A stretch of 64,000 nt of DNA from an uncultured Alphaproteobacteria bacterium (GCA_946613195.1 CAMOFE010000001.1:8151-72150); one strand, 5' to 3'; positions 22,236 through 50,612 are shown, counted from the stretch's first letter. Notes: generated by a model not told the origin, from the sequence alone. A program made the numbers and translations.

Positions 22236-22703
22236 TTATTTACCTTTGGTGTTTTTCATAATTAAATTTGTCAAAAATTGTAATTGGGCATTGCAATTGA
22301 TTTTCTGTTTTTCCAGTTCCTGTATTGCTTGGGTATGTTCTGCAATTTTCCGTTTGTGTTCGGCGATTTTTAATTGAATATCGCGGGATTGTTGTTGCAG
22401 CGTTTGACTGGCTGTCTGCATTTCAGATACAGTTTTATATTTCATATTTTCATTAAAATACATGGCCAGTTTCATATTTATTTCACCCAAGGTGATTTTA
22501 CCCATATTGCGTATATGGTGTAAATTATCTTGATGTTTTAACAATTCACCAATGGTGCGTATATCCCCATAACCTTTTAAGGTATTAGATGCACGTGTTG
22601 ATAAATTCAACACATCAATAGAAACATCAAATTCATCGTTTTTCATATTATTCTCCATCCATAACTTTTGGTACAGCAAAGTATCCACGTGATACGCCGG
22701 CAT
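22236..22703 (-). CDS. RNA polymerase alpha-subunit C-terminal-domain (alpha-CTD)-like protein with C-terminal coiled coil
   Basis: Segment DVLNLSTRASNTLKGYGDIRTIGELL resembles the alpha-CTD helix-hairpin-helix, followed by a heptad-rich tail (IAEHKRKIAEHTQAIQELEKQK). The likely start is an internal Met just after the gatC stop. Lies between gatC and gatA. Confidence 0.45.
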   Translation of the reverse strand: MPAYHVDTLLYQKLWMENNMKNDEFDVSIDVLNLSTRASNTLKGYGDIRTIGELLKHQDNLHHIRNMGKITLGEINMKLAMYFNENMKYKTVSEMQTASQTLQQQSRDIQLKIAEHKRKIAEHTQAIQELEKQKINCNAQLQFLTNLIMKNTKGK

Positions 22704-28285: not shown

Positions 28286-29233
28286 ATGTTTCGTAAGATA
28301 TTGATAATAGCGATGTTTGCAACTGCGGCGGGTTATTGTTTCGCCGAAGATAATGTTCACCAAGTTGTAACGAGTGAGGTTTTTTATGACGAAGAATATC
28401 GTCGGATTGATGATAATGTGTATGAAGATATCGTTGAAGAAACCGAAGTGCCTGCGTGGCCATTAGTTGGTTCTGATGCAGACGTAGAAGTTACATGTGA
28501 TCGTGGTGCGTGCAGTAATGTGCGTACACCTGTGGTCGCGCAAACGCCTGTGCCACGACGCGCAGATAATATTCGTATTGTTTCCAAAATTGGTGATGAT
28601 ATGGTTGTTGAAAATAATATAAATATGAGCGGTGCCGGTAACCAATGGTCGGGTGGTGCAGATATGGTGCATGGTATGCAAATCCCGGCGGGGTTTGATA
28701 ACGAATGTTATAATGGCGCAGAAATGCCGTTGTTGCATCGTGAAATTCTGGAAGATGACGGTGGCAGTGTATTGGCTGTATCACGTGGACCATACAATCG
28801 TTGTGGTGGATATGTAAACGATTACGATACATATGTTGCGAAAAGTAAATTAAGCGAAACAGAAAAATTGCGTTGGTTGGCGATGGATGATGCAACAACA
28901 GAATCAACAAAATCTGTTCGCGGTGATATTGTTGTTGATGTAACAACAGATGCGGATGCGGCCCCAGAATTACCAGACCAGGTGCGGTCTTGGGTTGTTG
29001 CAAATGGACAAACATTACGCGAAGTTTTGCAAAGTTGGTGTGATAAAGATGGTTGGGATTTAGTATGGGCAACATCGCGCGAATACCCGATAGAGGCCAG
29101 TGCGGTGTTCAAGGGACGTTTCGTTGATGTTGCATCTGCGCTGGTGCGGAACTTTGGTCGTGCAACACCAATCCCATATGCAAAATTTTACAAGGGAAAT
29201 CGTGTTTTAGTCGTATCCACCACCGAGGAGTAA
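28286..29233 (+). CDS. Secreted TcpQ-domain protein (type IVb pilus secretin partner, TcpQ/PilM-like)
   Basis: Signal peptide (..AAGYCFA|ED). C-terminal ~90 aa (..WVVANGQTLREVLQSWCDKDGWDLVWATSREYPIEASAVFKGRFVDVASALV..FYKGNRVLVV) matches the TcpQ family pattern. Located immediately upstream of a lipoprotein secretin, as tcpQ is to tcpC. Confidence 0.5.
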   Translation: MFRKILIIAMFATAAGYCFAEDNVHQVVTSEVFYDEEYRRIDDNVYEDIVEETEVPAWPLVGSDADVEVTCDRGACSNVRTPVVAQTPVPRRADNIRIVSKIGDDMVVENNINMSGAGNQWSGGADMVHGMQIPAGFDNECYNGAEMPLLHREILEDDGGSVLAVSRGPYNRCGGYVNDYDTYVAKSKLSETEKLRWLAMDDATTESTKSVRGDIVVDVTTDADAAPELPDQVRSWVVANGQTLREVLQSWCDKDGWDLVWATSREYPIEASAVFKGRFVDVASALVRNFGRATPIPYAKFYKGNRVLVVSTTEE

Positions 29234-29274: not shown

Positions 29275-30903
29275 ATGAAAAAAGTATTAAAACTTTTTGT
29301 GTTATGTTTGGCTGTCGGCACGATGGTGGCAGGTTGTGCAAAAAAAGAATCTGCCAAGGTTGCGGCCGCAGTTGATCAAAACTTTATCAATGCGTATGAC
29401 GCGTTTGAGATGGCAAAAAATCCACGCGCCAAGGTCGCCAGTGGCGATACTGTTTCTATGTCCGAAGGTGTTTGGTTGGGTAATAAATCAACCGTGTTGG
29501 AACACAAAAATAATCTGCCATCCCAGTTTGAGACGGATACAGGTGTAACAATTTTGTTAAACGAACCTGTTACACTGCAAGTGTTTGCAAATAATATAAA
29601 TTCCATTACAGGTATCCAGGTAAAAATAGACAGCCAAATTAATTCTGAAAAATTAAAAAGGACAATGAATATTGCCTACACTGGGAAACTGTCGGATTTG
29701 TTGTCCCAGGTCGCAACAGATTTAGATTTGCTGTGGTACTATGACAAAAGTTCTATTGTGTTTTACGAAACAGAAACAAAAACATTTACATTATATGCGC
29801 TGGGGACAGATGTGTCGTATCAATCATCTGTTCAGACAGATGAAGGAACGCAGGTGTCTTTGGAATCAACATTGCGCGAATGGGAAGAGGTTGAAAAGAC
29901 AATCGCATCTATTATTGGTAATACTGATAACGCGGAATTTACCGTTTCGCGCAGTTTAGGAACAATAACAGTTACCGCGCCACCGTCTGTGCAGACGCGT
30001 GTTGGTGAATATATTGCGCGTCAAAACCGCAGATTGTCGCAACTGGTAACGATTGATGTAAAAGTATTACAGGTATCAATTACTAATAATTCGGCATTTG
30101 GCCTGAATTTGGCGGCGGCGATTAACGCGGCATCAGGATTGAATATCGTTGCAAATCCCAAGAATAATTTAGCCGCGACCGAGGCCAGTTCAATGAATAT
30201 TGCTGTATTATCTAATACATTGTCGGCAATGACAGGTGCAACGCATTTGGTTAATGGTGTTGAAACAGCCGGCGCATATACATCTGATGATATAAACAAT
30301 GGTTCGTTGTCTGGTGTTGCAGGTTCCAGTGCGCTGATAGAGGCATTGGCCAAGCAGGGTAAAGTGTCTTTAGTTACAAATGTTGGTGTTACAACGCGTA
30401 ATAATCGTGTTGCCCCGGTAAATAATACGCGTACCACAGGTTATATTAAACGATTTGAATCGCGTACATTTACATCTGTGGAATCATCAACTGTGGATCA
30501 AGATAACTTGGAAACAGGTTTTGCTATGCAGTTGTTGCCAAATGTGCTGGAAAACGGGAAAATATTGTTGCTGTTCAGAATGTCTGTGCGTGAATTAATC
30601 AAAATGTCCAGCCAAACGATTGGCGAGGTTACCTTGCAATTACCCGAAGTTGAAGAACGCAGTTTTATGCAAGAAGTTATTATGGAATCAGGTCAAATGT
30701 TGGTCGTGTCCGGGTTTGAGAAGCAAACAAATAACGATACGCGTTATGGTTTGGGCGATCCTGATTTTATGGCGTTATCTGGTTCGCGTGAATCTGCTGC
30801 GCAACGCGATGTTTTGGTTGTTATATTAACACCACAAGTTTTGGTCAGTCCAATGGATGCCGAACGTAGTATTCAGCAACATTGGGGTGCACCATTAAAT
30901 TAA
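29275..30903 (+). CDS. Lipoprotein secretin of the type IVb pilus class (TcpC/BfpB/PilN-like)
   Basis: Lipobox (MVAGC). C-terminal secretin domain (..GQMLVVSGFEKQTNNDTRYGLGDPDFMALSGSRESAAQRDVLVVILTPQVL). 542 aa, the size of T4b secretins. Confidence 0.7.
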   Translation: MKKVLKLFVLCLAVGTMVAGCAKKESAKVAAAVDQNFINAYDAFEMAKNPRAKVASGDTVSMSEGVWLGNKSTVLEHKNNLPSQFETDTGVTILLNEPVTLQVFANNINSITGIQVKIDSQINSEKLKRTMNIAYTGKLSDLLSQVATDLDLLWYYDKSSIVFYETETKTFTLYALGTDVSYQSSVQTDEGTQVSLESTLREWEEVEKTIASIIGNTDNAEFTVSRSLGTITVTAPPSVQTRVGEYIARQNRRLSQLVTIDVKVLQVSITNNSAFGLNLAAAINAASGLNIVANPKNNLAATEASSMNIAVLSNTLSAMTGATHLVNGVETAGAYTSDDINNGSLSGVAGSSALIEALAKQGKVSLVTNVGVTTRNNRVAPVNNTRTTGYIKRFESRTFTSVESSTVDQDNLETGFAMQLLPNVLENGKILLLFRMSVRELIKMSSQTIGEVTLQLPEVEERSFMQEVIMESGQMLVVSGFEKQTNNDTRYGLGDPDFMALSGSRESAAQRDVLVVILTPQVLVSPMDAERSIQQHWGAPLN

Positions 30904-33026: not shown

Positions 33027-33836
33027 ATGAAAAAAACAGTTATCTTTTTAATATCTGCTTTGCTTTTAATGCCGGCATTTGCGGCGCCTGGGGATTCTGC
33101 ACGGCGCAGTATGTCTGATCAAATGGTTGCCGCACCACGTGCAACGGCATCGGTGGGTCAGTTAAATGCGACATCGGCGGCCAAAAAGTCCAGTATCAAG
33201 GTTGAAACAGATATGATTGCGGCACCGGTTGCAGATGAACAAAATCGCCGTGATAAAGAAAAAGAAGCGTGCCAGGGTAATAATATCGGTATTGGAAATA
33301 CTTTTGTTTGGGCGTCGCGTTACAGTAATTCATCCAGTTATGCATCTATGGTAGAAGATGTCAACAACCCTGAAAATAACGTTTGTTTTGTCAAGGTTGA
33401 TATGAAATCCAGCGATTCGCGTATAAATTTATCTGATATCCCCAGTAAATATTTTGTTATGGGTAATACAATTAATTGTGGTTCTTGGGTTGACGAAGAC
33501 GCATTACAAAAACGTATCTTGGATGCCAAGAAAACAGGACGCGCGTTGGCAACCGTTGGCGGTGTTGTTGGTGGTGCGGGCTTGGGCGTTGGCGCAATGG
33601 AATTGTTTGGTAACAAATTAATTGGTGGCAAGGTTATGGGTCAAAAAGATGAAAAACTGACAGAAACCGAAGTGTTTGTATCCCAGATGTTGGTTCTGAA
33701 ACAAGAAAATCGCGCAGAATATGATAAAATAATTAAAGAGTTGGAAAGCATACAATCGGAATGCAAGAATAATAACATTAAAGAATGTGCTGAATTGGAT
33801 TATGCCGCTTTGCTGAAAACACAGGATAACCAATAA
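33027..33836 (+). CDS. Secreted hypothetical protein with Gly-zipper segment
   Basis: Signal peptide (..LLMPAFA). 269 aa. Gly-zipper GGVVGGAGLGVGAMELFG near the C-terminal third, then a charged helical tail with 2 Cys. Confidence 0.5.
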   Translation: MKKTVIFLISALLLMPAFAAPGDSARRSMSDQMVAAPRATASVGQLNATSAAKKSSIKVETDMIAAPVADEQNRRDKEKEACQGNNIGIGNTFVWASRYSNSSSYASMVEDVNNPENNVCFVKVDMKSSDSRINLSDIPSKYFVMGNTINCGSWVDEDALQKRILDAKKTGRALATVGGVVGGAGLGVGAMELFGNKLIGGKVMGQKDEKLTETEVFVSQMLVLKQENRAEYDKIIKELESIQSECKNNNIKECAELDYAALLKTQDNQ

Positions 33837-33843
33837 TTTAATA

Positions 33844-33868
33844 AAATCCCGCATTGCGGGATTTTTTG
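33844..33868 (+). terminator. Rho-independent terminator
   Basis: AAAATCCCGCATTGCGGGATTTTTTG. Confidence 0.6.
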
Positions 33869-35195: not shown

Positions 35196-36539
35196 GTGCG
35201 GGTGGTTTTTACACTCTTGCGCGGGCAGGAAACTCTTTTAAGGAAGGAAAGGAGAAACGGCATGCAGGCAGCGGCAACAAAACAAATAATAAACTTGGAA
35301 AACATCCGGGGTGCGATTGCCGCCAAAATTGATTCTGCCGCGTTTACTTCTTGGATTGAACCACTGAAATTTAGTATTTGTGATGGCGTGCTGGTATTGG
35401 GTGCACAAAATCAATTCTCGGCTGATTATATAGCCAGTGTTTATAATGGTGTGTTATCTGCTGTTGCGGCTGAATTTGGTTTGACATTGTCAATATATGT
35501 TGCGTCTGTGCCTGTTGCGACAACAAAAATCGCGAACGACAACAACACACAAAATTATGCGCCGGCGACACCAGATGTTACGGCGCATATTGCATTTGAT
35601 GATTTTGTATCGTCTGATGAAAATGCATTTGTATTATCTGCGGCGCGCAGGGTCGCGACAGGCGCAGTATCTTTTTCACCACTGTTTATATATGGGCCGG
35701 CGGGTTGTGGTAAAACATTATTGGCAAATTGTATAAATTCATCTGCCACGGGTCGTGTTGTTATGATGTCTGGGGCACAATTTGTTGCAGAATTTACACG
35801 CAGTTTGGCGACACACACAATTTTCGCATTCAAGGATTTTTGTCGCAATTGTGATACATTTATTCTGGACGATATTCAGGTCTTGGCGGGCAAGCGCGCA
35901 ACAATGGACGAATTTATGCAACTGGTTATTGATTTACGCGAAGCGGGCAAAAACGTTGTGTTAACATCTGCGCAATCCCCAAACAATTTATCTGGGTTTG
36001 ACAGACGCGCACAATCATTATTGGCATCGGGCTTGGTTGCGGATATGGTGGCACCTGATAAAAACGCGCGTCGTACAATTTTGATTCGTTCTGGCGTTGC
36101 AAATGATGTTGCAGAATATATTGCCGCGCATACAACTGCAAATGGTCATACAATTGCCGGCGTTGCAAATAAAATCAAAACATACAGTGAATTAATGGGT
36201 CAATCGGTTGATATTGATACTGCATCGCGCCTGTTGGCAGATACACTGGAAAAATCCAAGACACCGATTGCGATGGTACGCGATATGTGTGAAAAACTGG
36301 GCGTGTCGTATGATTCTGTGTGCGGGGCAGGGCGTGGTCGTCGTTTGGTCTTGGCACGCCAGATAATGATGGTTGTATTAAAAGATGTTACAAATTTATC
36401 ATTGGCGGAAATTGGGAATATGGTTGGTGGTCGCGATCATGCAACGGTTTTGTATGCGATTCGCCAGATAGAAAAATTAAAACAGTCAGACTTGGTTTTG
36501 TCTGCGCAAATTAATCAGTTTATTTCAGATTGCAGATAG
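35196..36539 (+). CDS. dnaA: Chromosomal replication initiator DnaA (divergent)
   Basis: AAA+ P-loop (GPAGCGKTLL), sensor motifs, and C-terminal domain IV with HTH (..GGRDHATVLYAIRQIEKL..). The likely true start is the internal MQAAATK, preceded by a GGAAAGGAGA RBS. Confidence 0.8.
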   Translation: MRVVFTLLRGQETLLRKERRNGMQAAATKQIINLENIRGAIAAKIDSAAFTSWIEPLKFSICDGVLVLGAQNQFSADYIASVYNGVLSAVAAEFGLTLSIYVASVPVATTKIANDNNTQNYAPATPDVTAHIAFDDFVSSDENAFVLSAARRVATGAVSFSPLFIYGPAGCGKTLLANCINSSATGRVVMMSGAQFVAEFTRSLATHTIFAFKDFCRNCDTFILDDIQVLAGKRATMDEFMQLVIDLREAGKNVVLTSAQSPNNLSGFDRRAQSLLASGLVADMVAPDKNARRTILIRSGVANDVAEYIAAHTTANGHTIAGVANKIKTYSELMGQSVDIDTASRLLADTLEKSKTPIAMVRDMCEKLGVSYDSVCGAGRGRRLVLARQIMMVVLKDVTNLSLAEIGNMVGGRDHATVLYAIRQIEKLKQSDLVLSAQINQFISDCR

Positions 36540-36592: not shown

Positions 36593-36620
36593 AAAAAATC
36601 CGGCGATGCCGGATTTTTTA
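36593..36620 (+). terminator. Rho-independent terminator
   Basis: AAAAAATCCGGCGATGCCGGATTTTTTAT after dnaA. Confidence 0.65.
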
Positions 36621-36651: not shown

Positions 36652-37701
36652 ATGCGTGAATGTAATGCGATGGGGGAAATTCCAATGTTATTAAAACGTT
36701 TTGCAATATTTACAATTCTGGCGGGTGTGTTTGCAACATATGCTGCCACCGCCGCGGTTGACCCAAGAACAGAGTGTGTAAGAGAGGGTTGGTATACTAC
36801 TTATTATTATAATACTTCTGAAATAATTCAGGCAGATTATGCCATTTATTTTGATAATAATGTATCAACTATACCTGAAGATTGTAAAACAGAAGTGCAA
36901 AGTGTAATTAATGAATTGAAAAAGAAAAACAACGATATTGAAACAATATTATTGTTTGGTTCGGCAGATGCAACAGCGGGTGCAAATAGGGATGCAGAAT
37001 TAGGTATGAAACGTGCAAATACTGTTGCTAATTTATTAAAATATGCTGGTTTGGATTTTTGTTATTCTGAAAAATGTGATAATAGAACAGCAAAAGTATC
37101 CATGGGTGACGCAATGAATCGGGCGCAAGGATATATGGATTCTGATTTTTTTGCACGTGCTGTTTATATGTTCGTGATTTACAAGGGTGATGTTTGCAAT
37201 AAATCTACTATGGGCAGTATAGATGGTTTGTTAAGTCGCGTTAATAAACTATTAACAGAAAAACCAAATGATACGACATTAACAAAGGTAAAATCACAGT
37301 TAGAAACGGCAAAACAAACTTGTGGCGAAGTGAATAAAGTATTATTCCGTTCAGAACGTGAAAGTATTATGACGGCAATCAAATATGCAATTGATAATTT
37401 CCCTGAATTAAAATCTGTGGTAACTGTTGATGTCAGTTTATCTGCGCGAATAATGGCAATCAGGGCACGGTTGTCGGGAATGAAACGTTCTGCATGGAAA
37501 ACGACAGACGGTAAATTTAACACTGCGCGTCTGGCATCGGATTCAGTTGCGGGTGTTGTGCTGGGAACCGCCGGCGGTTTAATCACCAGTCATCTGGTTA
37601 AAAAGAGCCAATTAAAGAAAGGTATGGAAGATATTAAATGTGCAATCGGTGGACAAGAGGTTGCATCATACGGTGATGACTTTACTGTTGGGGTACGCTA
37701 A
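36652..37701 (+). CDS. Secreted protein with OmpA/MotB-like peptidoglycan-binding domain in its N-terminal half
   Basis: Signal peptide. ..ILLFGSADATAGANRDAELGMKRANTVANLL..FFARAVYMFVI resembles the OmpA_C-like core (G.TD..G....N..LS..RA..V...L, NRRVE.). The C-terminal 170 aa are unknown. Confidence 0.5.
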   Translation: MRECNAMGEIPMLLKRFAIFTILAGVFATYAATAAVDPRTECVREGWYTTYYYNTSEIIQADYAIYFDNNVSTIPEDCKTEVQSVINELKKKNNDIETILLFGSADATAGANRDAELGMKRANTVANLLKYAGLDFCYSEKCDNRTAKVSMGDAMNRAQGYMDSDFFARAVYMFVIYKGDVCNKSTMGSIDGLLSRVNKLLTEKPNDTTLTKVKSQLETAKQTCGEVNKVLFRSERESIMTAIKYAIDNFPELKSVVTVDVSLSARIMAIRARLSGMKRSAWKTTDGKFNTARLASDSVAGVVLGTAGGLITSHLVKKSQLKKGMEDIKCAIGGQEVASYGDDFTVGVR

Positions 37702-37728
37702 AAAAATCCGGCAACGCCGGATTTTTTA
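37702..37728 (+). terminator. Rho-independent terminator
   Basis: AAAAAATCCGGCAACGCCGGATTTTTTAT. Confidence 0.65.
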
Positions 37729-37734
37729 TTAAAA

Positions 37735-37792
37735 CGCAGAGAGCAAAGAGCAACGAAAGTACCAGCAACCAAAAAATCATAAATCATAAATC
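37735..37792. repeat. Dispersed repeat family B copy
   Basis: CAGAGAGCAAAGAGCAACGAAAGTACCAGCAACCAAAAAATCATAAATCATAAATC, matching 8984-9034 and 45035-45085. Confidence 0.6.
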
Positions 37793-39715
37793 TTGAACAG
37801 TGTCTTGTTTTATGATAAAATTGCATTCAGAGAGAATATGAAATCAATTACGCGTTTTTTTGCGTTTGTTTTATGCGCGGTGCCACTGTGCGCGGCGGCT
37901 GCGCCTGTTGCAACCACCGCCGGCAGTAATTTAACCGCATATAATCCAACCACAGGTGCAACAAATAATAATATGTGGAATACACTGATGAATGGACGCG
38001 GTGCGGCGGGCGGAAATAACGCGGCACCGGCAGATTTTGGAAACTGTAATGCACTGATAATTCGTTGCGCATCACCAAAGTGTGCTAATGGTGGATGCAC
38101 AGATATGGATGTCGCATCATCTATTGTGCGCGGATGTGTTAATTCCAATGAAAATTGTAAAAAATATGGCGATGATTTGGTTGAATACATATCTGCACAG
38201 TTGGTCGCATCTTCTAATGCAAAAATAAATGCTGCCAATGTTGCGGCGCAAAATGCCACTGCTGCGGCTGTGGCACAACAAAATGCCCAGCAAATGGCAG
38301 AAATGCAACAACAGATGCAACAGATGCAGGCAGAAATGGCGCAACAAAATGCGGCAACTGTTCAGGCAATGCAGGCGGCACTGGATGAACAGAAACAATT
38401 AACCGCAGATGCAATCGCAAATGCAAACGCAACACAACAAAGTGCGCCGTCTTATACTGCGCCGGTGCCAACAAATTCAGAATATGATAATGGGTTAACC
38501 AACGCCCAGATTATTGCGGCGCAAAATGGTGTGTCTGCGGATGTTTTGGCGCGTGAACAAATTGTTGGTGAAATAATGTCAAAACTGGAAAATGCAGAAA
38601 CCGCATTAAAGACATTAAAGACCACAATGCAAGATGCATTTGATTATGCGGGTTGTGATTCATTTGGTAATAATTGCAGTGGGCCAAAACGCGTGTCTGC
38701 GTTCAAGTCGCGTGCGATAAAATTCTTTGATCCATATAATACGGTGTTGGACGAATTATATGATGCGTTAATCACTGCCCAGGCCGCCGGTGTTGATATA
38801 ACAGATATCTATATGATGCTGGAAGGGTCATGTAATGTCTGGGGACAATATTTGTGTTCACAGACAGAACTTGGTGCGTATGCCGATGGGAGTAGTTTGC
38901 CAAAAAGTTGTGATAAGAATACTGGTAAAAGTATAAAATCTGGCAGTACCAAAGGGGGGCGTGATTGTGTAATTGGGCAACCAATTCCCCCCGAAGACAG
39001 TCCATTGTGCACACTGCAAAAAACATACGCCGATGGCGAAAGTGTGCGTCGCGCATGGTTGTACCCCGAAGAAGGTGATGATGAAACCCAGGGTGGTGCA
39101 ATACGCGTTGGGTGTGCGTCGTCTGCGCTGGATAATTCTAAATTCTTTCGCAGTCGCAAAAAACAGGCACAAATTGATATTGAAATACTGGAACGTATAA
39201 TTGAACAAGATGCATCTGCGTCCAGTGGTTTTACCATGTTTGGTGCGCGCCGGGACGATGGCGCACGTCGTGAACAAACATACGGTGCATGTGCGATTGG
39301 CGAAACAATGTATGCAGATTTGCAGAAAATAACCGCAACAAAAAAATTGCCAGACAAAATATGTATGAAACAACGCGATGCGATTGAAAAAGTCCGCAAT
39401 GATGCCCCATTGGCACTTGCAACAGGTGGCATGTCCAAGACAATCTTGAAATATCACGAACAATGTGAAAAAGAAGATAGAGAGAGTGTTACGGATTATT
39501 GGGAATGTTTGTGTCCAAAAATAGGTAATGGTTACACAAAATCTAGTGAAGGTGAATATTGTTCTTGCGGAACGGATTCTAATAAATATTGGGGCAAGGA
39601 TAATTATTACGAATGTTTGACCGATGACCAAATATGCACACGTAAACAGTTTTGTACAGGTACACAAAAATCACAATGGAATCAGACTGAAAAAACATGT
39701 GGTGATTGCAAATAA
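37793..39715 (+). CDS. Large secreted Cys-rich protein with Ala/Gln-rich coiled-coil segment, unknown function
   Basis: Signal peptide at the internal MKSITRFFAFVLCAVPLCAAAAP. ~30 Cys in CxxC/CxnC patterns in the N- and C-terminal regions. Central region QQNAQQMAEMQQQMQQMQAEMAQQNAATVQAMQAAL. 640 aa. Confidence 0.5.
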   Translation: MNSVLFYDKIAFRENMKSITRFFAFVLCAVPLCAAAAPVATTAGSNLTAYNPTTGATNNNMWNTLMNGRGAAGGNNAAPADFGNCNALIIRCASPKCANGGCTDMDVASSIVRGCVNSNENCKKYGDDLVEYISAQLVASSNAKINAANVAAQNATAAAVAQQNAQQMAEMQQQMQQMQAEMAQQNAATVQAMQAALDEQKQLTADAIANANATQQSAPSYTAPVPTNSEYDNGLTNAQIIAAQNGVSADVLAREQIVGEIMSKLENAETALKTLKTTMQDAFDYAGCDSFGNNCSGPKRVSAFKSRAIKFFDPYNTVLDELYDALITAQAAGVDITDIYMMLEGSCNVWGQYLCSQTELGAYADGSSLPKSCDKNTGKSIKSGSTKGGRDCVIGQPIPPEDSPLCTLQKTYADGESVRRAWLYPEEGDDETQGGAIRVGCASSALDNSKFFRSRKKQAQIDIEILERIIEQDASASSGFTMFGARRDDGARREQTYGACAIGETMYADLQKITATKKLPDKICMKQRDAIEKVRNDAPLALATGGMSKTILKYHEQCEKEDRESVTDYWECLCPKIGNGYTKSSEGEYCSCGTDSNKYWGKDNYYECLTDDQICTRKQFCTGTQKSQWNQTEKTCGDCK

Positions 39716-40437
39716 TGAATAATAGACAGAATATCTTTTATAGGTTTTTATATGGCGCGGTGGCGTGTGTGTTTGCGTGCGTTGTTTCGTCTGGCGCGTT
39801 TGCCGCGGGTGATGGCGGGTGCGATAATGAAGAAAATGATTACATAAATCCTGAACTGGCGCTGTGTTCGGTGCATGCATATAATATGGGACTGGATGAA
39901 AACCCCAGCAGTGATATGCGCCCGGTTATGCGTGGAGTGGTGGGACTGAAAACCACGGTTATCACGCAACAGATGAAAAAACAGTATGATTATATGGACG
40001 CGATGATTCGTCGTTTTCGTGTACAATTACAAAAGGCGACATTACAAACAAAATTACAGGCTGCCGGTGCTGCTGCATCTGATTCATCGGGTGGTTCTGA
40101 ACGATTCGTTTCCAACGACCGTAATATATTTATCGCCGGCGTTAATAATTGTAACAATGAAATAACATCATTAAAAAAATATGAATGTTTATATAATAAT
40201 CTGAATACTATTACTAATTCGTCGGCAAACGGGTCAAATGTTACAGTTGAGTTAAAGAAACAATTGGCAAATGATTATAGCCTTACCAAAGGCAGCAAGT
40301 CTGAATGCAGGAAATACACAGATATAAAAACTAGAAAAATATTTCAGACTTGTTTAGATGATTTAAGGGACGTAGTTCGCACAGAGTATGAAAAAGAACA
40401 ACGCGAAGATATGAAAGCTCGAAATAGCAGATATTAA
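39706..40437 (+). CDS. Secreted hypothetical protein, co-transcribed with the preceding gene
   Basis: 10-nt overlap with the upstream gene. Signal peptide (..SSGAFAAGDGGC). 243 aa with a helical, charged C-terminus. Confidence 0.45.
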   Translation: MQIMNNRQNIFYRFLYGAVACVFACVVSSGAFAAGDGGCDNEENDYINPELALCSVHAYNMGLDENPSSDMRPVMRGVVGLKTTVITQQMKKQYDYMDAMIRRFRVQLQKATLQTKLQAAGAAASDSSGGSERFVSNDRNIFIAGVNNCNNEITSLKKYECLYNNLNTITNSSANGSNVTVELKKQLANDYSLTKGSKSECRKYTDIKTRKIFQTCLDDLRDVVRTEYEKEQREDMKARNSRY

Positions 40438-40463
40438 AATCCGCGCAATGCGCGGATTTTTTA
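40436..40463. terminator. Bidirectional Rho-independent terminator
   Basis: AAAATCCGCGCAATGCGCGGATTTTTTAT between convergent genes. Confidence 0.65.
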
Positions 40464-42440
40464 TACAAACAAATCTTTAACAAACTGGGCGTGTTCAGTG
40501 ATGAACTTGAAACGAAACTCTGGTTTCTTGCCCATCAATTCCGATACAATCGTGCGTGTTTTTTCTGTATCTTCGGCACCGTCATCTGTACGTGGGGGTA
40601 ATTCAACGCGTATCAATCGGCGTGTTTTCGGCGACATAGTAGTTTCTTTTAATTGATTCGGCATCATTTCACCCAACCCCTTGAATCGCGATATTTCAAC
40701 CTTTTTACCACGATACTTGCCGTTCTTTAATTCTTCCAGTTCTTCATCTGTATCAATATAAATTGATTCTGTTCCGTGTGTTAATTTATACAACGGCGGA
40801 CAAGACAAGTATAAATGTCCACCATAAATTAATTGGGGCATCATCTGATAAAAGAACGCCATCAACAACGATGCAATATGCGAACCATCAACATCCGCAT
40901 CAGTCATCACAATAATTTTTTCATATCGCAGTTTTGATTCGTCCCAATCTTTGACAGTTCCTGCACCGATAATATCAATTAATTCGTTCAGTTCTTTGTT
41001 ATTACCGAATCGTTCATCAGAATTAGATACAACATTTAACACCTTGCCACGCAATGGCATAATCGCCTGGGTCGCGCGGTCGCGCGCCTGTTTGGCGGTG
41101 CCACCGGCGGATTCCCCCTCTACTATAAACAATTCTGTGCCGTCAATTCCGTGTTTAGAACAATCAGCCAATTTCGCCGGCATACGTGCGCGTTTAGTCG
41201 GGGTCTTGCGCGCAATTTCTTTGACTTGTTTTGTTTTAATTCGTGCATTTGCCAGATTGATTACAAAATCCAAAACCGCGTTCGCTGTTTTTGGATCAGA
41301 TGCCAAGAACATATCCCACGGATCACGCAGTGCATTTTCTGTATATCGTGCAATTTCCGGATTTGATAATTTTTCTTTGGTTTGACCCAAGAATTGTGGC
41401 GTTTTGTAAAATACAGATACAATTGCCGCAACCGAATCAAAAACATCTTCGCCGATAATTGTTTGTGCGGCCTTGTTATTAATTTTTTCACCGTACGCCT
41501 TTAATCCACGGGTTATCGCAGACTTGAACCCGGTTTCATGTGTGCCGCCGTCCACGGTTGCAATTGTATTACAGTATGATGCAAAGAACCCATCGTCGGA
41601 CGCCGCGCCATTTTCATCTGTTAAAAATGTCAACGCCCATTCCACACGCCCCATGTCATCTGGAAAATCAACCGTGCCACTGAAAATTCGGGGCAATATG
41701 CGTGGTTTAGAATCAGTCTTTTCTGCCAAGAAATCAGCAACACCATTTGGGTAATAGAATGTTGTGGTGTTTGGAATATTCATATCTTCGGTAAGTAACG
41801 CCGGATTACAATTCCAATCAATTTTTACCCCACGCGACAGAAATGCCTTGGCACGCGCCATACGAAAGATTTTAACAGACTTGAACACAGCGTTCGCGCC
41901 AAATATTTCATCATCAATAGTAAAACGGATTTTTGTTCCATGTGCGCGCGTTGCATCCCCGCGTGTAATTGGCGATGTTGTAACCCCGCGTGAAAAAGTC
42001 TGGTGCCAGACATATCCATCGCGCGATATATCAACAATCATTTCTTTTGATAATGCATTTACGACCGCCGACCCCACACCATGCAGACCGCCACTGGTTT
42101 TATAAACATTGTTATTAAATTTGCCCCCTGAATGCAGGGTTGTCAAAATAACTTCTAATGCAGATTTACCCGGATATTTTGGATGTTCATCAACTGGGAT
42201 TCCGCGTCCGTCATCCGCAATTTCAATTGTTTTGGCATCAATCAGGTTTACAGTAATTTTCTTGGCGAATCCGGCGACCGCTTCATCAATAGAATTATCC
42301 ATAATTTCCACAGGCAAATGGTGCCACGCCTTTTCATCTGTGCCACCAATGTACATCCCCGGGCGCAAACGCACAGGTTCCAAGCCTTCCAGTACCTGGA
42401 TATCAGATGCATCATATGAATGTGTATTATTTTCAGCCAT
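40461..42440 (-). CDS. parE: DNA topoisomerase IV subunit B (ParE)
   Basis: GHKL ATPase (..GLHHLV.EI.DNS.DE), Toprim (EGDSA), 659 aa and no GyrB-specific insert, so ParE rather than GyrB. Confidence 0.85.
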   Translation of the reverse strand: MAENNTHSYDASDIQVLEGLEPVRLRPGMYIGGTDEKAWHHLPVEIMDNSIDEAVAGFAKKITVNLIDAKTIEIADDGRGIPVDEHPKYPGKSALEVILTTLHSGGKFNNNVYKTSGGLHGVGSAVVNALSKEMIVDISRDGYVWHQTFSRGVTTSPITRGDATRAHGTKIRFTIDDEIFGANAVFKSVKIFRMARAKAFLSRGVKIDWNCNPALLTEDMNIPNTTTFYYPNGVADFLAEKTDSKPRILPRIFSGTVDFPDDMGRVEWALTFLTDENGAASDDGFFASYCNTIATVDGGTHETGFKSAITRGLKAYGEKINNKAAQTIIGEDVFDSVAAIVSVFYKTPQFLGQTKEKLSNPEIARYTENALRDPWDMFLASDPKTANAVLDFVINLANARIKTKQVKEIARKTPTKRARMPAKLADCSKHGIDGTELFIVEGESAGGTAKQARDRATQAIMPLRGKVLNVVSNSDERFGNNKELNELIDIIGAGTVKDWDESKLRYEKIIVMTDADVDGSHIASLLMAFFYQMMPQLIYGGHLYLSCPPLYKLTHGTESIYIDTDEELEELKNGKYRGKKVEISRFKGLGEMMPNQLKETTMSPKTRRLIRVELPPRTDDGAEDTEKTRTIVSELMGKKPEFRFKFITEHAQFVKDLFV

Positions 42441-45170: not shown

Positions 45171-45623
45171 ATGAAACGCAAAGAATATGTTCGTTTGATG
45201 GGACGTGCGCTGATTATGTTTGACAGATTGGCGGATGGATTAAAGTTACGTCCAGAAAAACTGGACGGTTTTACGCGCCAACAAATGACTGTGCTGGTAC
45301 GATTGCTGTTGGATGGCCGTGCCAAGTTAAAAGATATTGCGCGTCGCGAAATGGTATCTGCGCCGAATCTGTGCGCAACATTTCGGAAACTGGAACACGA
45401 TGGTTTGGTGTTGCGTACGGTTGATGAATCAGACAGACGAAACACGTGGTATTCTGTTACGCGTTCTGGGGAACGGGTTGCGCGTCGCGCCATTGAACAA
45501 TTTTATGATATGATGGAAAAAATGTTCGCAGATTTGGATTCAGATGATGAACAAGAATTAACAGGCGCATTGGAATCAATGAACGAAATTTTAACAAAGG
45601 TGGTAAAAAATCATGTTGGGTAA
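45171..45623 (+). CDS. MarR-family transcriptional regulator
   Basis: Winged HTH (..QMTVLVRLLLDGRAKLKDIARREMVSAPNLCATFRKLEHDGLVLRTVDESDRRNTWYSVTRSGE). 150 aa, first gene of the efflux operon. Confidence 0.8.
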   Translation: MKRKEYVRLMGRALIMFDRLADGLKLRPEKLDGFTRQQMTVLVRLLLDGRAKLKDIARREMVSAPNLCATFRKLEHDGLVLRTVDESDRRNTWYSVTRSGERVARRAIEQFYDMMEKMFADLDSDDEQELTGALESMNEILTKVVKNHVG

Positions 45624-46950
45624 AAAGTATTATTTGATTGGTGGTATTATTTGTGCGCTGGTTTCGGCGCCGTCTTTTGGTATGGATTTATCACTGGAAT
45701 CGGCGGTGGAAAAAATTATCGCAGAATCCCAAGATATTAAGAAAGCAGATGCAAATGTTAAACAGGCCCAAGCGCAATTGGATGCGGTAAACGCGAATCG
45801 TTGGTTTAATATTTCTGCAAATGCATCGTATATGAATCTGATAAATGTTAAAAAGCCATTTGATTCCACGGGAATGGAATTGCCTGATAATCTGAACATG
45901 GTAAAACATTTCTTGAATAATGCCGAAGATTTGGATTTGTCTAATCTTGCAATCCCAGATAATATATTTATGGCAGGTGTGAAAATAACCCAACCGATAT
46001 ATACATTTGGTAAAATCGGTCATGCCGTGGACAGTGTGCGTGACGCAATTTCTATGTCCGAATCGGGACGTGAATTGACTATGCGCGAAGTTCGGTACAG
46101 TGCCACTGATTTATATTGGACCGCCAAAATGACAGATGAAATTGTGAAACTGGCGGAAAAAGATTTGCAATCTGCGCGCCAGGCTAAAAATAATGTGGCG
46201 GCGGTTGGTCGTGCGAATCGCAGTAACTTGGTTAAAATTGAATCTGATATTGCAGCAAAACAAATAAACCTGTCGGATGCAGAATTTAATCGTGATACCG
46301 CGTACAGAATGTTGAAAATTTTGGCGGGCATTGATATAAATGAAGATATTGTTTTAACAGATGAATTTCCATCTGAATTTGCAGACCTGGATGCAGGCGA
46401 ATTTACCACCACACCAAAATTGGATATGTTAAGCAAGCAGGCAAAAATGTATGAATCCCAGGCAAAATCAAAACGCGCAGATGCGTACCCAACACTGGCG
46501 GCAATGGGGTCATACAGTTATATGACAATGGACGAATCGTTCCGTGATATGTTTAATCGCAATAATTCGCAATCTGCGTATTGGGGATTGGCGCTGGAAG
46601 TGCCGATATTTACAGGTGGCTTGAACCGTGCAAATGCAACAGTCAGCGCAATGAATGCCGAAGCCGCCCGTCAAGACCTGGACAAGGCAAAGAAATTAAC
46701 CGCCGAAGAATATAATCGTGCAATTGCACAATATAATCATTTGCGTGGTAATTTGGAAAACTTGCAAAACGCACGCGATTTGGCAGCCAAGGCATATCAA
46801 TTTTCCGAAGAAAGATTTGCCGCCGGCCAAACATCTGCGGTGGAATTATCTGATGTCGCCGCAGGGTTGTATCAACTGGATATGGCACTGTTAAATTCTA
46901 AATATAAAATTTTAATGTCAGCAGAATCTGTTAAAAAATTGGGGAATTAA
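45613..46950 (+). CDS. TolC-like outer-membrane efflux protein (OMF family)
   Basis: Signal peptide. Two OEP repeats with coiled-coil and beta-strand pattern. 445 aa. Confidence 0.8.
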   Translation: MLGKKYYLIGGIICALVSAPSFGMDLSLESAVEKIIAESQDIKKADANVKQAQAQLDAVNANRWFNISANASYMNLINVKKPFDSTGMELPDNLNMVKHFLNNAEDLDLSNLAIPDNIFMAGVKITQPIYTFGKIGHAVDSVRDAISMSESGRELTMREVRYSATDLYWTAKMTDEIVKLAEKDLQSARQAKNNVAAVGRANRSNLVKIESDIAAKQINLSDAEFNRDTAYRMLKILAGIDINEDIVLTDEFPSEFADLDAGEFTTTPKLDMLSKQAKMYESQAKSKRADAYPTLAAMGSYSYMTMDESFRDMFNRNNSQSAYWGLALEVPIFTGGLNRANATVSAMNAEAARQDLDKAKKLTAEEYNRAIAQYNHLRGNLENLQNARDLAAKAYQFSEERFAAGQTSAVELSDVAAGLYQLDMALLNSKYKILMSAESVKKLGN

Positions 46951-46954
46951 AAAG

Positions 46955-47581
46955 ATGAAAACACTAGATAAAATTCGCAAGTGGTTTGCGGGGCTGAATA
47001 TTGCGCGCATAAAAAAAGTTTTTTATATCGCGTGTATGGCGATAATGGTGCTGTGGGTTATATACAGATTTGTGTCTGTCGCACTGGAAAGTCGGCGTGA
47101 TGTGTTTAATACTGCGCGTGATGCGGCGGTAAATGGTGTGCCAGTGCATGTTATTGAAATGCATAAAACAAATGGCGTATTGCGTGAACCTGTGTTTGTA
47201 ACACATAATCGTATTTATGTATCTGGGGCGCGTATAAACTTGTTCCGTACTGGTATGCGTGTGGGCGAAGGTGAAGTTGTATCTGTATCGCATAATATTG
47301 ATTATGATACAGGTATGCATATTGTAACAACACGTGGTGTGGGGGACGGTGCGAACTTTGCCGAATATTCTGCAAACGGATTTTTTGTGCCAGTTTATGC
47401 AATATCAGATGGTGCTGTGTTTGTTGTTAGTGGTGAACACGCATCGCGTCGTGATATATCTGTATCGCGTATGGATTCTGAAAACGCACTGGTATCCCAG
47501 GGGTTGTCGGATGGCGATATGGTGATTTTATCACATATCACAGACGGCGAAAAAGTCAGTATTAAAATTACAGAAAAATAA
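46955..47581 (+). CDS. Short membrane-anchored periplasmic adaptor-like protein (truncated MFP/HlyD-like?)
   Basis: 208 aa with an N-terminal TM then beta-rich domains, in the adaptor position between OMF and RND genes. About 150 aa shorter than canonical MFPs. Confidence 0.4.
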   Translation: MKTLDKIRKWFAGLNIARIKKVFYIACMAIMVLWVIYRFVSVALESRRDVFNTARDAAVNGVPVHVIEMHKTNGVLREPVFVTHNRIYVSGARINLFRTGMRVGEGEVVSVSHNIDYDTGMHIVTTRGVGDGANFAEYSANGFFVPVYAISDGAVFVVSGEHASRRDISVSRMDSENALVSQGLSDGDMVILSHITDGEKVSIKITEK

Positions 47582-47582
47582 T

Positions 47583-50500
47583 TTGTGGGGGGATTTTGTT
47601 ATGTTAAAGTTTTTTGTTCGCAGACCTGTTACAACAATAATGTTTGTTTTGGTATGGGTTGTGTTGGGCTTGGTGTCCATTCCAAAAATGAATATTGAAC
47701 GCACACCGTCCTTGGATTTTCCAATGGTAACTGTTCGGTTTATATATCCCGGCGCATCCAGTGAAGAAATAGAATCCCAGGTTATTAAAAAAGCCGAAGA
47801 TGCCGTATCCGAAGTCCCAGAATTAAAACACATAACATCCCGTATTTTTGAGAATGGCGGATATATTATGACTGAATTCAACCTGGGGGTTGATGCAAAT
47901 GATAAAGCATCCGAAGTCAAATCAAAAATAGATGCATTAGCATCTGAATTCCCAGATGAATTAAAGCAGCCTGTGGTTGAAAAATTAAACCCATTGCAAG
48001 AATCTGTGGTAGATATTGTTTTGCGCGGTGCAGATGCACGCGATTTGGAAAAATATGTTGATGATGTATTGTCTAATAAAATTACTGCAATTCCAGGTGT
48101 AGCCAAGGTATCAACATTTGGTGGACGCAATCGTGCAATTCGTGTTGCGATGAATCCTGACTTAATGGCGGCACGTGGTGTTACGATAATGGATGTTGTA
48201 TCGGCATTGGGTAATAAAAATCTGAATGTGCCAGGTGGTAAATTGGAATATGGAACAACATCTGAAAACGTGCGATTTATTGGTGAATTTGCATCTGTGG
48301 ACGAAATAAGTCAATTACGAATCACAACAGCCGAAGGGCAAAATTTTAGATTGTCAGATATCGCATCTGTATCTGATGGTGCGCGTGATATTGAAACAGG
48401 CGCATTGTACAGTGGCGAATCGGTTGTTATCGCATCTGTGGAAAAAGCATCAGATGGCAACGCAATTAAAATTTCGCGTGAATTGCGTAAACACCTGGGG
48501 GAATATCAATCAGATATGCAATCGCGATTCCCAGATGCAACAATGACAATCGCAACAGATTCATCGGTTACCGTTATGGACGAAACACTGGATACCATGT
48601 GGGGTATTATACTGGGGATTGTGTTCACAGTATTGGTCTTGTTGGCGTTTACGCGTAATTGGCGTTCAACAATTATCGCAGGTGTTGTGATTCCTGCATC
48701 ATTATTGGCTGGATTTACATTTATGTCCGCCAGTGGATTTACCATAAATGTTATGACACTGTTGGCATATTCATCTGCATTGGGGACATTGGTTGCGAAT
48801 GCTATTATTTTGATAGAGGCCGCCCTGCAAGAATTGCGTGCAGGTAAATCACCCGAAGATGCTGCAATTGATGGAACTAAAAAAGTCGCTGTATCTGTAT
48901 TGGCGGGCGTTGGAACAAATGTTGTGGTGTTCTTGCCACTGGCGTTTATGGGCGGAATCGTCGGTATGTTTATGGTGCAATTTGGTCTGACGGTTGTGTA
49001 TTTAACATTGTTATCATTGGTATTCTCGTTCACTTTAACGCCAATGATGATTGCAAAAATATTGCGTTTGACCCCAGGTGATAAAAAAGCCGCAAAACCG
49101 TCTGTTCAGAAAAAACGCAGTACAGGTTGGATGCGAAAAATATTCGTATCCCAGGTGCGACATCCAGGTCGCTTTGCGATTACGGCGGTGGTTGCGCTGG
49201 TTGCATCAACAATGTTGATGCGGTTTGTTGGAAATGAATTCTCGCCATCAACAGATGCAAATGAAATAAATATTACTGCGCGTGCACCAGTTGGCGCAAC
49301 ATATGAAAAATCTGAATCTATTGCGCGACAAATAGAAAAAAATATTTCTGATATACCCGAAGTTTTGGCAACCACAGTCAAAATCGGCGACCAAGGATTA
49401 CAGAATATATCGGTCAAAGTAACATTGGTTGATAATTCTGAACGCGGTAAATCTGATAAACGTTTGGCCCAGGAAATGTTGCCACGTCTGGCGGTGATTC
49501 CAGATGCAGAAATTCAGATTCGTGCAGGTCAAGCAATGGGTTCTGTATCATCTGATATGGTTCTGAATATATATGGTCCAGATGATGCAGTGCGTGAAAA
49601 GTACGCAAATGATATTATCGCAATGGCAAATCAAATAACCGCAGTGCAAAGTGCTGTTCTGGCGCAACAGGTGGCTGGTAATGAAATTAAATTTATCCCA
49701 GATGCGGAAAAAATGAATTTCTGGGGTATAAAAAATTCGTATGCTGGGGCAACTTTGCGTGCAGCGTTGTACGGGAACGATGATTACAAATATAAAGAAA
49801 ATGGCGATGAATATCCGATTATATTGGAATATGACAGCGCATTCCAAAACCATGCAATGTTTGATATGGTTTATGTAAATTCACCAAAAGGGATGGTGCC
49901 ACTGTCCAGCCTGGGTGAAATACAGACTGCGCGTGCAACCCCTGATATTCGCCGTTTGGACAAAAGTCGTATTACAGAAATTGATATCAATATTGGTAAG
50001 TCAACATTGGGACCGGTGCAAGCAAAAATAGAATCTGGTCTGAAAAAAATGGATTGGCAACCTGGGTATCATTATGAATTTGGTGGAATGTCAGAAACAC
50101 AATCAGAATCCACAGGCGAAATCGGCAGCGCATTCTTGTTGGCGACAATATTGACATTTATGTTGTTGGCGGCAATTCTGAATTCGTTTACCCATCCATT
50201 AACAATCGCAACATCAATTATAACCAGTTTCTTTGGTGTGTTTATAATGCTGTTCTTGTCAGGTGCATCAATGAATGTTGGTGCGATGGTGGCGTTTGTT
50301 ATGTTGGTGGGCTTGGTTGTGAATAACAGTATTCTGGTACTGGAACCTGCGTTGGCGCGTGTTCGCCGTGGCGAAGATAAAACAGACGCGATATGGGCAG
50401 AATTAACATCGCGTCGTTCAATGGTAATGATGACATCTATCGCCATTGTAACAGGTATGTTGCCCCAGTTGTGGAGTACCAATGGTATGAAAGCCGCCAT

Positions 50501-50612
50501 GGCGGCGGTAATGATTGGCGGTATGTTGGCCAGTATGCTGTTCACATTTATGTTGACCCCGGCTTTGTTCTTTTTGATGGAAAGTTTGCGGGGCAGGGTA
50601 AAGAAAAAGTGA
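47583..50612 (+). CDS. RND-family efflux transporter (AcrB/HAE1-like)
   Basis: ~1000 aa, 12 TM in a 1+5/1+5 topology with two large periplasmic loops. Typical AcrB N-terminus (MLKFFVRRPVTT..). The true start is probably the internal MLKFF. Confidence 0.9.
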   Translation: MWGDFVMLKFFVRRPVTTIMFVLVWVVLGLVSIPKMNIERTPSLDFPMVTVRFIYPGASSEEIESQVIKKAEDAVSEVPELKHITSRIFENGGYIMTEFNLGVDANDKASEVKSKIDALASEFPDELKQPVVEKLNPLQESVVDIVLRGADARDLEKYVDDVLSNKITAIPGVAKVSTFGGRNRAIRVAMNPDLMAARGVTIMDVVSALGNKNLNVPGGKLEYGTTSENVRFIGEFASVDEISQLRITTAEGQNFRLSDIASVSDGARDIETGALYSGESVVIASVEKASDGNAIKISRELRKHLGEYQSDMQSRFPDATMTIATDSSVTVMDETLDTMWGIILGIVFTVLVLLAFTRNWRSTIIAGVVIPASLLAGFTFMSASGFTINVMTLLAYSSALGTLVANAIILIEAALQELRAGKSPEDAAIDGTKKVAVSVLAGVGTNVVVFLPLAFMGGIVGMFMVQFGLTVVYLTLLSLVFSFTLTPMMIAKILRLTPGDKKAAKPSVQKKRSTGWMRKIFVSQVRHPGRFAITAVVALVASTMLMRFVGNEFSPSTDANEINITARAPVGATYEKSESIARQIEKNISDIPEVLATTVKIGDQGLQNISVKVTLVDNSERGKSDKRLAQEMLPRLAVIPDAEIQIRAGQAMGSVSSDMVLNIYGPDDAVREKYANDIIAMANQITAVQSAVLAQQVAGNEIKFIPDAEKMNFWGIKNSYAGATLRAALYGNDDYKYKENGDEYPIILEYDSAFQNHAMFDMVYVNSPKGMVPLSSLGEIQTARATPDIRRLDKSRITEIDINIGKSTLGPVQAKIESGLKKMDWQPGYHYEFGGMSETQSESTGEIGSAFLLATILTFMLLAAILNSFTHPLTIATSIITSFFGVFIMLFLSGASMNVGAMVAFVMLVGLVVNNSILVLEPALARVRRGEDKTDAIWAELTSRRSMVMMTSIAIVTGMLPQLWSTNGMKAAMAAVMIGGMLASMLFTFMLTPALFFLMESLRGRVKKK

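Follow-up and report, generated by a model that had tools for sequence, protein, structure and literature searches.

Gene organization of the dnaA–parE interval

We analysed a 64,000-nucleotide (nt) stretch of DNA from an uncultured Alphaproteobacteria bacterium (GCA_946613195.1, CAMOFE010000001.1:8151-72150), referred to at its full length as the window, with focus on positions 36652-40437, where an earlier note made from the sequence alone had placed three consecutive genes for secreted proteins between dnaA and parE. Three consecutive open reading frames (ORFs), here called A, B and C, are present there on the + strand, bracketed by dnaA (35196-36539, +; domains DnaA_N, Bac_DnaA and Bac_DnaA_C) and by a convergent parE/gyrB-type gene (40461-42440, -). 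Alignments of homologues, together with gene calls made independently for the same contig (metagenome scaffold ENA ERZ28612945), set the gene starts. For A, a Shine-Dalgarno sequence (GGGGGAA) is found 6 nt upstream of 36685 and the homologues begin with MLKK; the upstream ATG at 36652 would make a protein of 349 amino acids (aa). The alignments and gene calls give B a length of 625 aa, in place of the 640 aa proposed earlier, and leave intact its description as rich in cysteine (Cys). C comprises 240 aa instead of 243, and the 10-nt overlap with B reported for it had come from an upstream TTG. The stop codon of B and the start codon of C share one base in the sequence TAATG (39713-39717), and from this overlap B and C are understood to be translationally coupled. 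The genes and their transcription signals are as follows.

36685..37701, + strand: gene A, 338-aa OmpA-family envelope protein, ATG at 36685
37838..39715, + strand: gene B, 625-aa Cys-rich protein predicted to be exported, ATG at 37838, orphan family
39715..40437, + strand: gene C, 240-aa protein predicted to be exported, ATG at 39715, six conserved Cys, orphan family
36596..36616, + strand: intrinsic terminator hairpin of dnaA, AAATCCGGCGATGCCGGATTT and then a T run; one of three copies of a hairpin family in the window
37704..37724, + strand: terminator hairpin of gene A, AAATCCGGCnnnGCCGGATTT-type, with a T run after it
37793..37821, + strand: promoter-like site just 5' of B, TTGAAC, 17 nt, TAAAAT, with TG; a consensus match only
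40436..40463, both strands: bidirectional terminator hairpin, AAAATCCGCGCAATGCGCGGATTTTTT, common to the B–C operon and the convergent parE

The hairpin AAATCCGGCnnnGCCGGATTT with its T run matches the window three times, against 0 matches expected by chance, and each time at the 3' end of a gene: at 33844-33864 (after a 269-aa gene, 33027-33836), at 36596-36616 (after dnaA) and at 37704-37724 (after A), with a variant at 40436-40463. The sequence between B and C holds no terminator; the one before B is that of A, and the next one lies after C. The transcription units are dnaA, A and B–C. The proposal that the first two genes have terminators of their own thus holds for A (37704-37724) but not for B, and a three-gene operon tied to dnaA is ruled out by the terminators together with the synteny described below. 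The near-identical hairpins most likely represent one of the "repeat families" of the earlier note; its "Family B repeat" in front of the supposed 640-aa gene is, to judge from position, as no sequence was given for it, most likely the intrinsic terminator of gene A.

Two antisense ORFs within B, at 38858-39667 (-, 269 aa) and 38809-39438 (-, 209 aa), were judged most likely to be non-coding by-products of the reading frame of B; a similar antisense ORF in locus L038 is behind a spurious tblastn match ("cl9"). When the 269-aa protein and the products of A, B and C were compared by blastp with every ORF of the window, only self-matches resulted.

Linkage, fusion and synteny of B and C

Relatives of B were scanned in one genome per species of GTDB; 216 genomes encode B, and 80 loci were kept for the analysis of gene context. 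C is located directly 3' of B in 78 of these 80 loci, which come from genomes of different species, and the other two loci end at contig edges. Fusion of B and C into a single ORF is seen in 11 loci (examples are P0110 and an 857-aa ORF of L038), where B from residue 1 to ~512, ending in the motif LK.LP...C, continues in frame into mature C from Cys36, the first conserved Cys of C; the fused forms have neither the signal peptide of C nor the C-terminal tail of B. Natural fusions of this kind constitute classical Rosetta-stone evidence that B and C act together, in one compartment and at a ratio of about 1:1. The genes flanking the pair belong to at least four unrelated context types, exemplified by rluD with a 1040-aa Cys-rich protein; by secDF with ftsK; by murG, leuS and a thioesterase; and by runs of coiled-coil exported paralogues. 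With flanks so unrelated, the B–C pair is the only constant. The homologues of B derive from metagenome-assembled genomes (MAGs) titled "Candidatus Enterousia sp.", "uncultured Rickettsiales bacterium UMGS..." and "Alphaproteobacteria bacterium", from rumen, colon, faeces and human gut, and the carriers of B–C apparently all belong to the GTDB order Rs-D84 (Candidatus (Ca.) Enterousia and relatives) of the gut.

The grouping of all three genes into one cluster, proposed earlier, dissolves on comparison of genomes, B and C alone being found to travel together. An A-type gene adjoins B–C in just one of the 80 other loci. In L039, a 670-aa protein with the C-terminal module of A is encoded directly upstream of B–C. 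A relative (L085) shares the backbone of the window in the order secretin ... plsY, homologue of the 269-aa gene, dprA, dnaA, homologue of A, parE, dnaJ, pgsA and uvrC, and the A family follows dnaA in at least one related genome. In L085, an unrelated 142-aa gene sits between the A homologue and parE, in the place that B–C takes in the window, which indicates that B–C holds this slot in the window genome and not in that relative. The interval is composed of two independent units, A and the B–C operon. A reading of A, B and C as one envelope module, with A anchoring the B–C complex to peptidoglycan and membrane, could appeal to the adjacency of the three genes on the same strand in the window, as well as to the L039 protein just mentioned; given that A has a terminator of its own, that A-type genes are so rarely found beside B–C and that the dnaA–A–parE backbone of the relative exists without B–C, this reading is disfavoured by synteny and we regard it as the least likely of those considered here.

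Elsewhere, more uncharacterised exported proteins flank B–C, as in L004-L006 (genes upstream of B) and in L022 (2881-5991; 6096-7889, -; 12916-14265, -). The neighbours include runs of three to four paralogous coiled-coil proteins (365-670 aa), a BspA-type leucine-rich-repeat (LRR) protein, a 450-aa Cys-rich protein and the ~1040-aa Cys-rich protein, which is built of repeated C-x6-C-x4-6-C modules. The exported and Cys-rich neighbours in other genomes gave no match in Pfam, and uncharacterised Cys-rich exported proteins seem to be numerous in the Rs-D84 lineage.

Export signals, cysteine content and selection

Signal peptides were assessed by inspection for a basic N-region, a hydrophobic core of 10-20 residues and A-x-A at positions -3/-1. 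All three proteins present this pattern, in agreement with the earlier note, and the pattern is kept among the homologues of A, B and C though the sequence is not. The N-termini read MLLKRFAIFTILAGVFATYA in A and MKSITRFFAFVLCAVPLCAAA in B and end with FYRFLYGAVACVFACVVSSGAFA in C, each followed by an alanine after the predicted cleavage site; the Kyte-Doolittle 19-mer maxima are 1.87 for A, 2.26 for B and 1.97 for C. The signal peptides of B and C do not contain the lipobox [LVI][ASTVI][GAS]C, and the Cys residues found in them are unconserved and without lipobox context.

B has 28 Cys in total, 26 of which are in the mature part. Invariant are 16 Cys in the core of B and four in C, where one more is nearly invariant (115-sequence alignment). 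Mature sequences mostly carry an even number of Cys (B-like, 120 of 123; C-like, 106 of 113), and all 26 variable tails of B examined likewise contain an even number, ranging from 4 to 16. Such parity is as predicted by intramolecular disulfides, and counts that are often not multiples of 4 (6, 10, 14, 22, 26) fit pairing better than they fit tetrahedral metal sites. Alternatively, B–C could be a periplasmic Cys-based redox or metal-handling system (metal sequestration, thiol buffer) in which the Cys residues serve as ligands or redox centres. The very high Cys content, the invariant C-x4-C, C-x6-C and C-x-C spacings and the occurrence in anaerobic fermenters, whose capacity for oxidative folding is uncertain, would accord with it. 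Considering the even counts, the lack of His/Cys metal motifs, of a thioredoxin-like CxxC fold and of any Pfam metal-binding family, and a long coiled-coil-like architecture unusual for such proteins, we think this alternative very unlikely.

Pairwise Nei-Gojobori estimates of the ratio of nonsynonymous to synonymous substitution (dN/dS) lie at 0.03-0.17 for the core of B in 20 of 21 pairs (one pair, 0.44) and at 0.02-0.36 for C in nine of 10 pairs (one pair, 0.75). The core of B and C are under strong purifying selection. The C-terminal tail of B presents a different picture: the majority-residue frequency is 0.26 against 0.79 in the core, and dN in the tail exceeds that in the core by a factor of up to 40, as in the pair L033/L040 with 0.889 for the tail and 0.022 for the core. 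These values suggest that the tail is replaced as a whole, beyond point substitution alone.

The selection pattern bears directly on the earlier view of the three proteins as novel secreted effector or surface candidates. Novelty and predicted export stand for B and C, and the tail of B is compatible with surface exposure, but a distribution over 216 species and a core dN/dS of ~0.03-0.17 are unlike those of a strain-variable effector. B and C (with or without A) as secreted or surface factors directed at a host or partner, that is, adhesins or effectors, would suit a lineage that has reduced genomes and is proposed to be symbiotic or parasitic; hypervariability of the B tail, at times swapped wholly between close relatives, points the same way, as do the large Cys-rich exported proteins, the BspA-type LRR protein and the runs of coiled-coil exported paralogues beside B–C elsewhere and the secretin and TcpQ-domain gene 7-9 kb upstream in the window. 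However, B and C rank in their cores with the lineage's better conserved proteins, and the tail is dispensable, being lost in the 11 fused forms. Linkage to a secretion system is not consistent among the B–C loci, the searches of Pfam, NCBIfam and PDB profiles gave no effector-like or adhesin domain, and a Sec signal peptide alone brings a protein only to the periplasm. An effector would be expected to be patchily distributed, to evolve fast along its whole length and to be linked to a secretion system; B–C does not show these features, and only the tail of B evolves fast. On balance, we see a host- or partner-directed factor as a possible, if doubtful, explanation.

Architecture and relatives of B and C

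The mature proteins can be divided into the following regions.

38036..38212, + strand: B aa 67-125, conserved helical domain with six invariant Cys (C-x6-C-x4-C-x4-C ... C-x6-C); model confidence (predicted local distance difference test, pLDDT) 76-87
38213..38497, + strand: B aa 126-220, Q/A/M-rich long helices (coiled-coil-like) and a low-complexity linker
38498..39373, + strand: B aa 221-512, conserved core, helices and a small beta region, 10 invariant Cys
39374..39712, + strand: B aa 513-625, hypervariable Cys-rich tail; 90-249 aa in homologues, with an even Cys count; missing in the fused forms
39910..40062, + strand: C aa 66-116, long and highly conserved helix; invariant K79, Q85, Q86, Q90, Y91, R100 and Q104
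40117..40434, + strand: C aa 135-240, confident helical-bundle model, pLDDT 90-96, with four conserved Cys inside

The core of B ends at the LK.LP...C motif, which is also the junction with C in the natural fusions, and the conserved helix of C (aa 66-116) is a candidate interface with B. In its AlphaFold model, B consists mainly of long helices with a small beta region, and blocks at ~aa 70-130, 250-310 and 340-410 reach a pLDDT of 70-87; the model of C is good only in the C-terminal helical bundle.

That the second and third ORFs match no recognised family was borne out. Against Pfam and NCBIfam, B and C gave only matches with E >= 0.02 in low-complexity coil; matches in PHROGs were confined to the Q/A-rich coil of B, and profile searches of all PDB sequences gave a best E of 0.097. 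Matches to TFIIA, Mediator, sestrin, RNase E and portal proteins were dismissed as compositional, arising from the Q/A/M-rich helix of B. A phage or defence origin of B–C was also set aside, the PHROGs matches being in the coil only; no PADLOC search was made. No relationship of B and C to each other was detected by hhalign, nor of either to the conserved neighbours elsewhere (clusters 1-4, 6, 8, 12, 14, 18 and 21), the sole relation in these comparisons being that of the C-terminal module of A to the ~1040-aa Cys-rich proteins (68%). Literature search returned no paper that ties Enterousia or Rs-D84 to B or C proteins.

As judged by a HMMER profile search of 1.84 billion representative proteins, which retrieved 180 clusters (169 with E <= 1e-10), the B family is sharply bounded, and ten of its most divergent clusters are unnamed or "hypothetical protein" entries from Alphaproteobacteria or Rickettsiales MAGs. 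At 90% identity, B forms at least 1340 clusters. Its best matches among 5.8 billion proteins are 52-59% identical, a divergence comparable to that of DnaA (61%), PlsY (63%) and DprA between the window genome and a relative.

Gene A

The first ORF is OmpA-like, as had been noted. It matches Pfam OmpA (PF00691) at E 2.6e-9 over positions 1-69 of the 98 in the model, and its score of 37.8 bits exceeds the cut-off of 27.2. A is an ordinary OmpA-family protein predicted to bind peptidoglycan, the kind of homology to a housekeeping family that the earlier note had itself named as speaking against its view. Two elements define the protein.

36847..37053, + strand: OmpA-like peptidoglycan-binding domain of A, motif GSAD..G....N..L...RA kept across the family
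37495..37698, + strand: C-terminal module of A, SVWK..GKFNTARLASDSIAGVVLGTAGG.ITS..VKKNQLK.GFED..C..GGQ.V..YGD.F.VG; near-invariant, the best-conserved part of the family

The family profile of A matches the solved peptidoglycan-binding domains of Omp38, Pal and OmpA with E of 1.5e-7 to 1e-5. The binding motif reads GSADATAGANRDAELGMKRANTV; among 30 homologues R110 does not vary, conservation of D95, N103 and L106 is 90% or higher, and the motif residues align with the same motif in 3td3. We take D..G....N..L..RA to be the motif by which the OmpA-like domain family contacts peptidoglycan (at diaminopimelic acid, DAP), and A is predicted to bind peptidoglycan via a canonical OmpA-like domain. 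Scores of A remain far below the NCBIfam equivalog cut-offs of Pal (22.8 of 125), YiaD (26.9 of 175) and YfiB (27.3 of 128), and A contains no lipobox L-x-x-C, its first Cys coming after DPRTE; from its sequence A is judged not to be an orthologue of any of the three.

The C-terminal module comprises the last ~70 residues and is near-invariant in 30 diverse homologues. It is composed of a glycine-zipper hydrophobic helix (AGVVLGTAGG.ITS), the basic stretch VKKNQLK and a ~30-aa tail ending in C..GGQ.V..YGD.F.VG; in A itself the hydrophobic glycine zipper is at aa 287-305 and is followed by KKSQLKK. An extra helical region of ~150 aa separates it from the OmpA-like domain. A local hidden Markov model (HMM) of the module finds one match in the window and one in the 670-aa protein adjoining B–C in L039, and hhalign relates the module weakly to the C-terminal ends of ~1040-aa Cys-rich proteins exported in related genomes (68%, E 4.7e-5). 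With the OmpA C-terminal-like peptidoglycan-binding proteins (Pal, the C-domain of OmpA, Acinetobacter baumannii Omp38, YiaD and YfiB), A shares domain, motif and predicted export, and with YiaD it also has in common that a glycine zipper accompanies the OmpA-like domain. It differs from OmpA-like proteins in that an N-terminal beta-barrel and a lipobox are missing, and the zipper is C-terminal, with the basic stretch and the conserved ~30-aa tail after it. Our reading of A is that of an ordinary OmpA-family envelope tether with an unusual, apparently lineage-specific C-terminal anchor module.

In the slot after dnaA, L085 (6001-7020) encodes a protein of 31% identity to A, compared to 90% for the flanking ParE, 76% for DnaJ and 61% for DnaA. 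A closer homologue of A (47%) is located elsewhere in another genome, after a LysM-M23 peptidase gene. The A family is either very fast-evolving or made of mutually replacing paralogues.

The organism and the wider window

The window genome belongs to the reduced-genome, probably partner-dependent gut lineage of Rs-D84 and Ca. Enterousia relatives, in keeping with the reduced symbiont-type genome assumed earlier. Genomes of Rs-D84 are reduced to ~0.7-1 Mb and are without respiration, complete glycolysis, most biosynthesis and flagella, while carrying genes for rod shape and peptidoglycan (2025 paper, PMC12306168). The window is fitting for a diderm with peptidoglycan: it encodes penicillin-binding proteins, MraY, FtsW, MurG, LolA, TatC, a LysM-M23 peptidase, a small beta-barrel outer-membrane protein, AsmA, TolC-AcrB efflux and a secretin with a TcpQ-domain partner.

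The last two of these, a TcpQ-domain protein (28286-29233, +) followed by a secretin (29275-30903, +; PF00263), are ~7-9 kb upstream of the A–C interval and represent a type IV pilus, competence or type II secretion system-like outer-membrane channel in a genome below 1 Mb; in a related genome, too, this secretin comes before plsY-dprA-dnaA. The 269-aa protein encoded at 33027-33836 (+) is an exported-type, lineage-specific protein with a signal peptide and a glycine-zipper hydrophobic segment at aa 173-191; it has no match in Pfam or NCBIfam. Its synteny with plsY-dprA-dnaA extends to a related genome (60% identity), and in another genome its homologue comes directly after the homologue of A. 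A segment related to it is found inside the ~1040-aa Cys-rich proteins upstream of B–C in 33 other genomes.

The flanks of dnaA (35196-36539) are dprA and gene A, not dnaN, which lies ~21 kb downstream (57322-58440). The GC skew is positive throughout the dnaA region, with no change of sign there. Flanks and skew together suggest that the replication origin may not adjoin dnaA. A complete efflux operon is kept in this highly reduced genome at 45171-50612 (+), consisting of a MarR-family regulator, a TolC-like outer-membrane factor, a 208-aa protein and an AcrB-type resistance-nodulation-division pump (E 2e-185); the 208-aa protein has no Pfam match and is possibly the periplasmic adaptor. A class II fructose-bisphosphate aldolase (E 4.5e-92) is encoded at 59653-60702 (-), whereas Rs-D84 genomes were reported to lack this enzyme (PMC12306168); either the lineage differs or the gene was missed in the published analysis. 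Upstream of gatA and gatB, a stand-alone 155-aa ORF (22236-22703, -) has the RNA polymerase alpha C-terminal domain as its sole Pfam match (E 2.3e-12).

Discussion

The B–C pair is best understood as a Sec-exported, disulfide-stabilised, helical complex outside the cytoplasm that forms an envelope component with a variable tip, a reading to which we give an even chance. From one transcription unit, and with translational coupling, B and C would be produced for export via Sec. After cleavage by signal peptidase I, they would fold with numerous intramolecular disulfides and assemble at about 1:1 into a helical, coiled-coil-like complex. The core of B (aa 23-512) together with C would then constitute a widely conserved component of the Rs-D84 envelope, most likely structural or scaffolding, in the periplasm or at the cell surface. 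The Cys-knotted C-terminal tail of B would serve as a dispensable, fast-evolving tip directed at a variable counterpart, for instance a phage, a host factor or a partner cell, and this tip probably faces the outside world. A would function separately as an envelope tether, exported via Sec, bound to peptidoglycan through its OmpA-like domain and held at the membrane by the C-terminal glycine-zipper module rather than by an N-terminal beta-barrel or lipid anchor.

Several points weigh against this understanding of B–C. Export, disulfides, complex formation, location and role are all features that we infer, and a structural or scaffolding role is the default assignment for such an architecture. 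AlphaFold models B with low confidence (pLDDT 58.6; predicted template modelling score, pTM, 0.26), so the fold is tentative, and fold searches with the models of B and C returned generic helical matches only (Foldseek E >= 0.44). Rs-D84 are strict fermenters devoid of respiratory chains (PMC12306168), and the usual DsbA/DsbB-quinone route for making periplasmic disulfides may therefore be missing; the conserved Cys of B and C could bind metals instead. The 216 genomes, finally, are a count of carriers and not a share of all Rs-D84 genomes, and their placement in Rs-D84 is taken from the titles of the 80 kept loci.

Functional or architectural analogies for B–C as a disulfide-stabilised helical envelope complex may be found among proteins that are not its homologues. 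In chlamydiae, which have reduced genomes, the envelope proteins OmcA and OmcB are exported, very rich in Cys and restricted to the lineage, and a structural role stabilised by disulfides is presumed for them. B–C could be their functional analogue on all these features, yet sequence or profile similarity is absent and B–C is predicted to be helical and coiled-coil-like, not beta-rich. As a coiled-coil spacer or fibre, B would have architectural analogues in Lpp, in domain II of TolA and in the helical hairpins of membrane-fusion proteins. It differs from the Lpp/TolA-type spacers in having no lipid or transmembrane anchor and no homology to them, and in its several apparently disulfide-rich globular modules and its obligate partner protein. 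The Helicobacter cysteine-rich proteins (Hcp) are exported, disulfide-bridged helical repeats with regularly spaced Cys pairs. The N-terminal domain of B may be likened to them as a helical module, likewise predicted to be exported, with regular Cys pairs, but Pfam reveals no Sel1/SLR repeat in B, and both the Cys spacing and the overall architecture differ.

An extension of these ideas would view B–C as the core of an unrecognised surface apparatus of Rs-D84, comprising a disulfide-locked coiled-coil stalk and a swappable, Cys-knotted tip for attaching to, or exchanging with, a partner cell or host, the tip being diversified by partners, phages or immunity. We consider this extension unlikely.

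Lastly, our study has bearing on how the envelope of a widespread group of gut bacteria is viewed. The published analysis of the Rs-D84 lifestyle invokes unknown membrane proteins, maybe for transport or cell contact (PMC12306168). Conserved hypothetical exported proteins are common in uncultured lineages, and B–C is a well-delimited "dark" family among them; no new mechanism is demonstrated here and current ideas are not overturned. The near-invariant C-terminal module of A may define a new mode of anchoring for OmpA-like proteins. B and C present a small, concrete target, consisting of two proteins and a natural single-chain form, for structure determination, for metaproteomics and for antibody-based localisation or enrichment. 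Rs-D84 and Ca. Enterousia are widespread in the guts of humans, ruminants, birds and termites with genomes of less than 1 Mb, and a pair of genes that is kept in more than 200 species at such small genome size, and is conserved like DnaA, is likely essential for the envelope or the lifestyle of these organisms.

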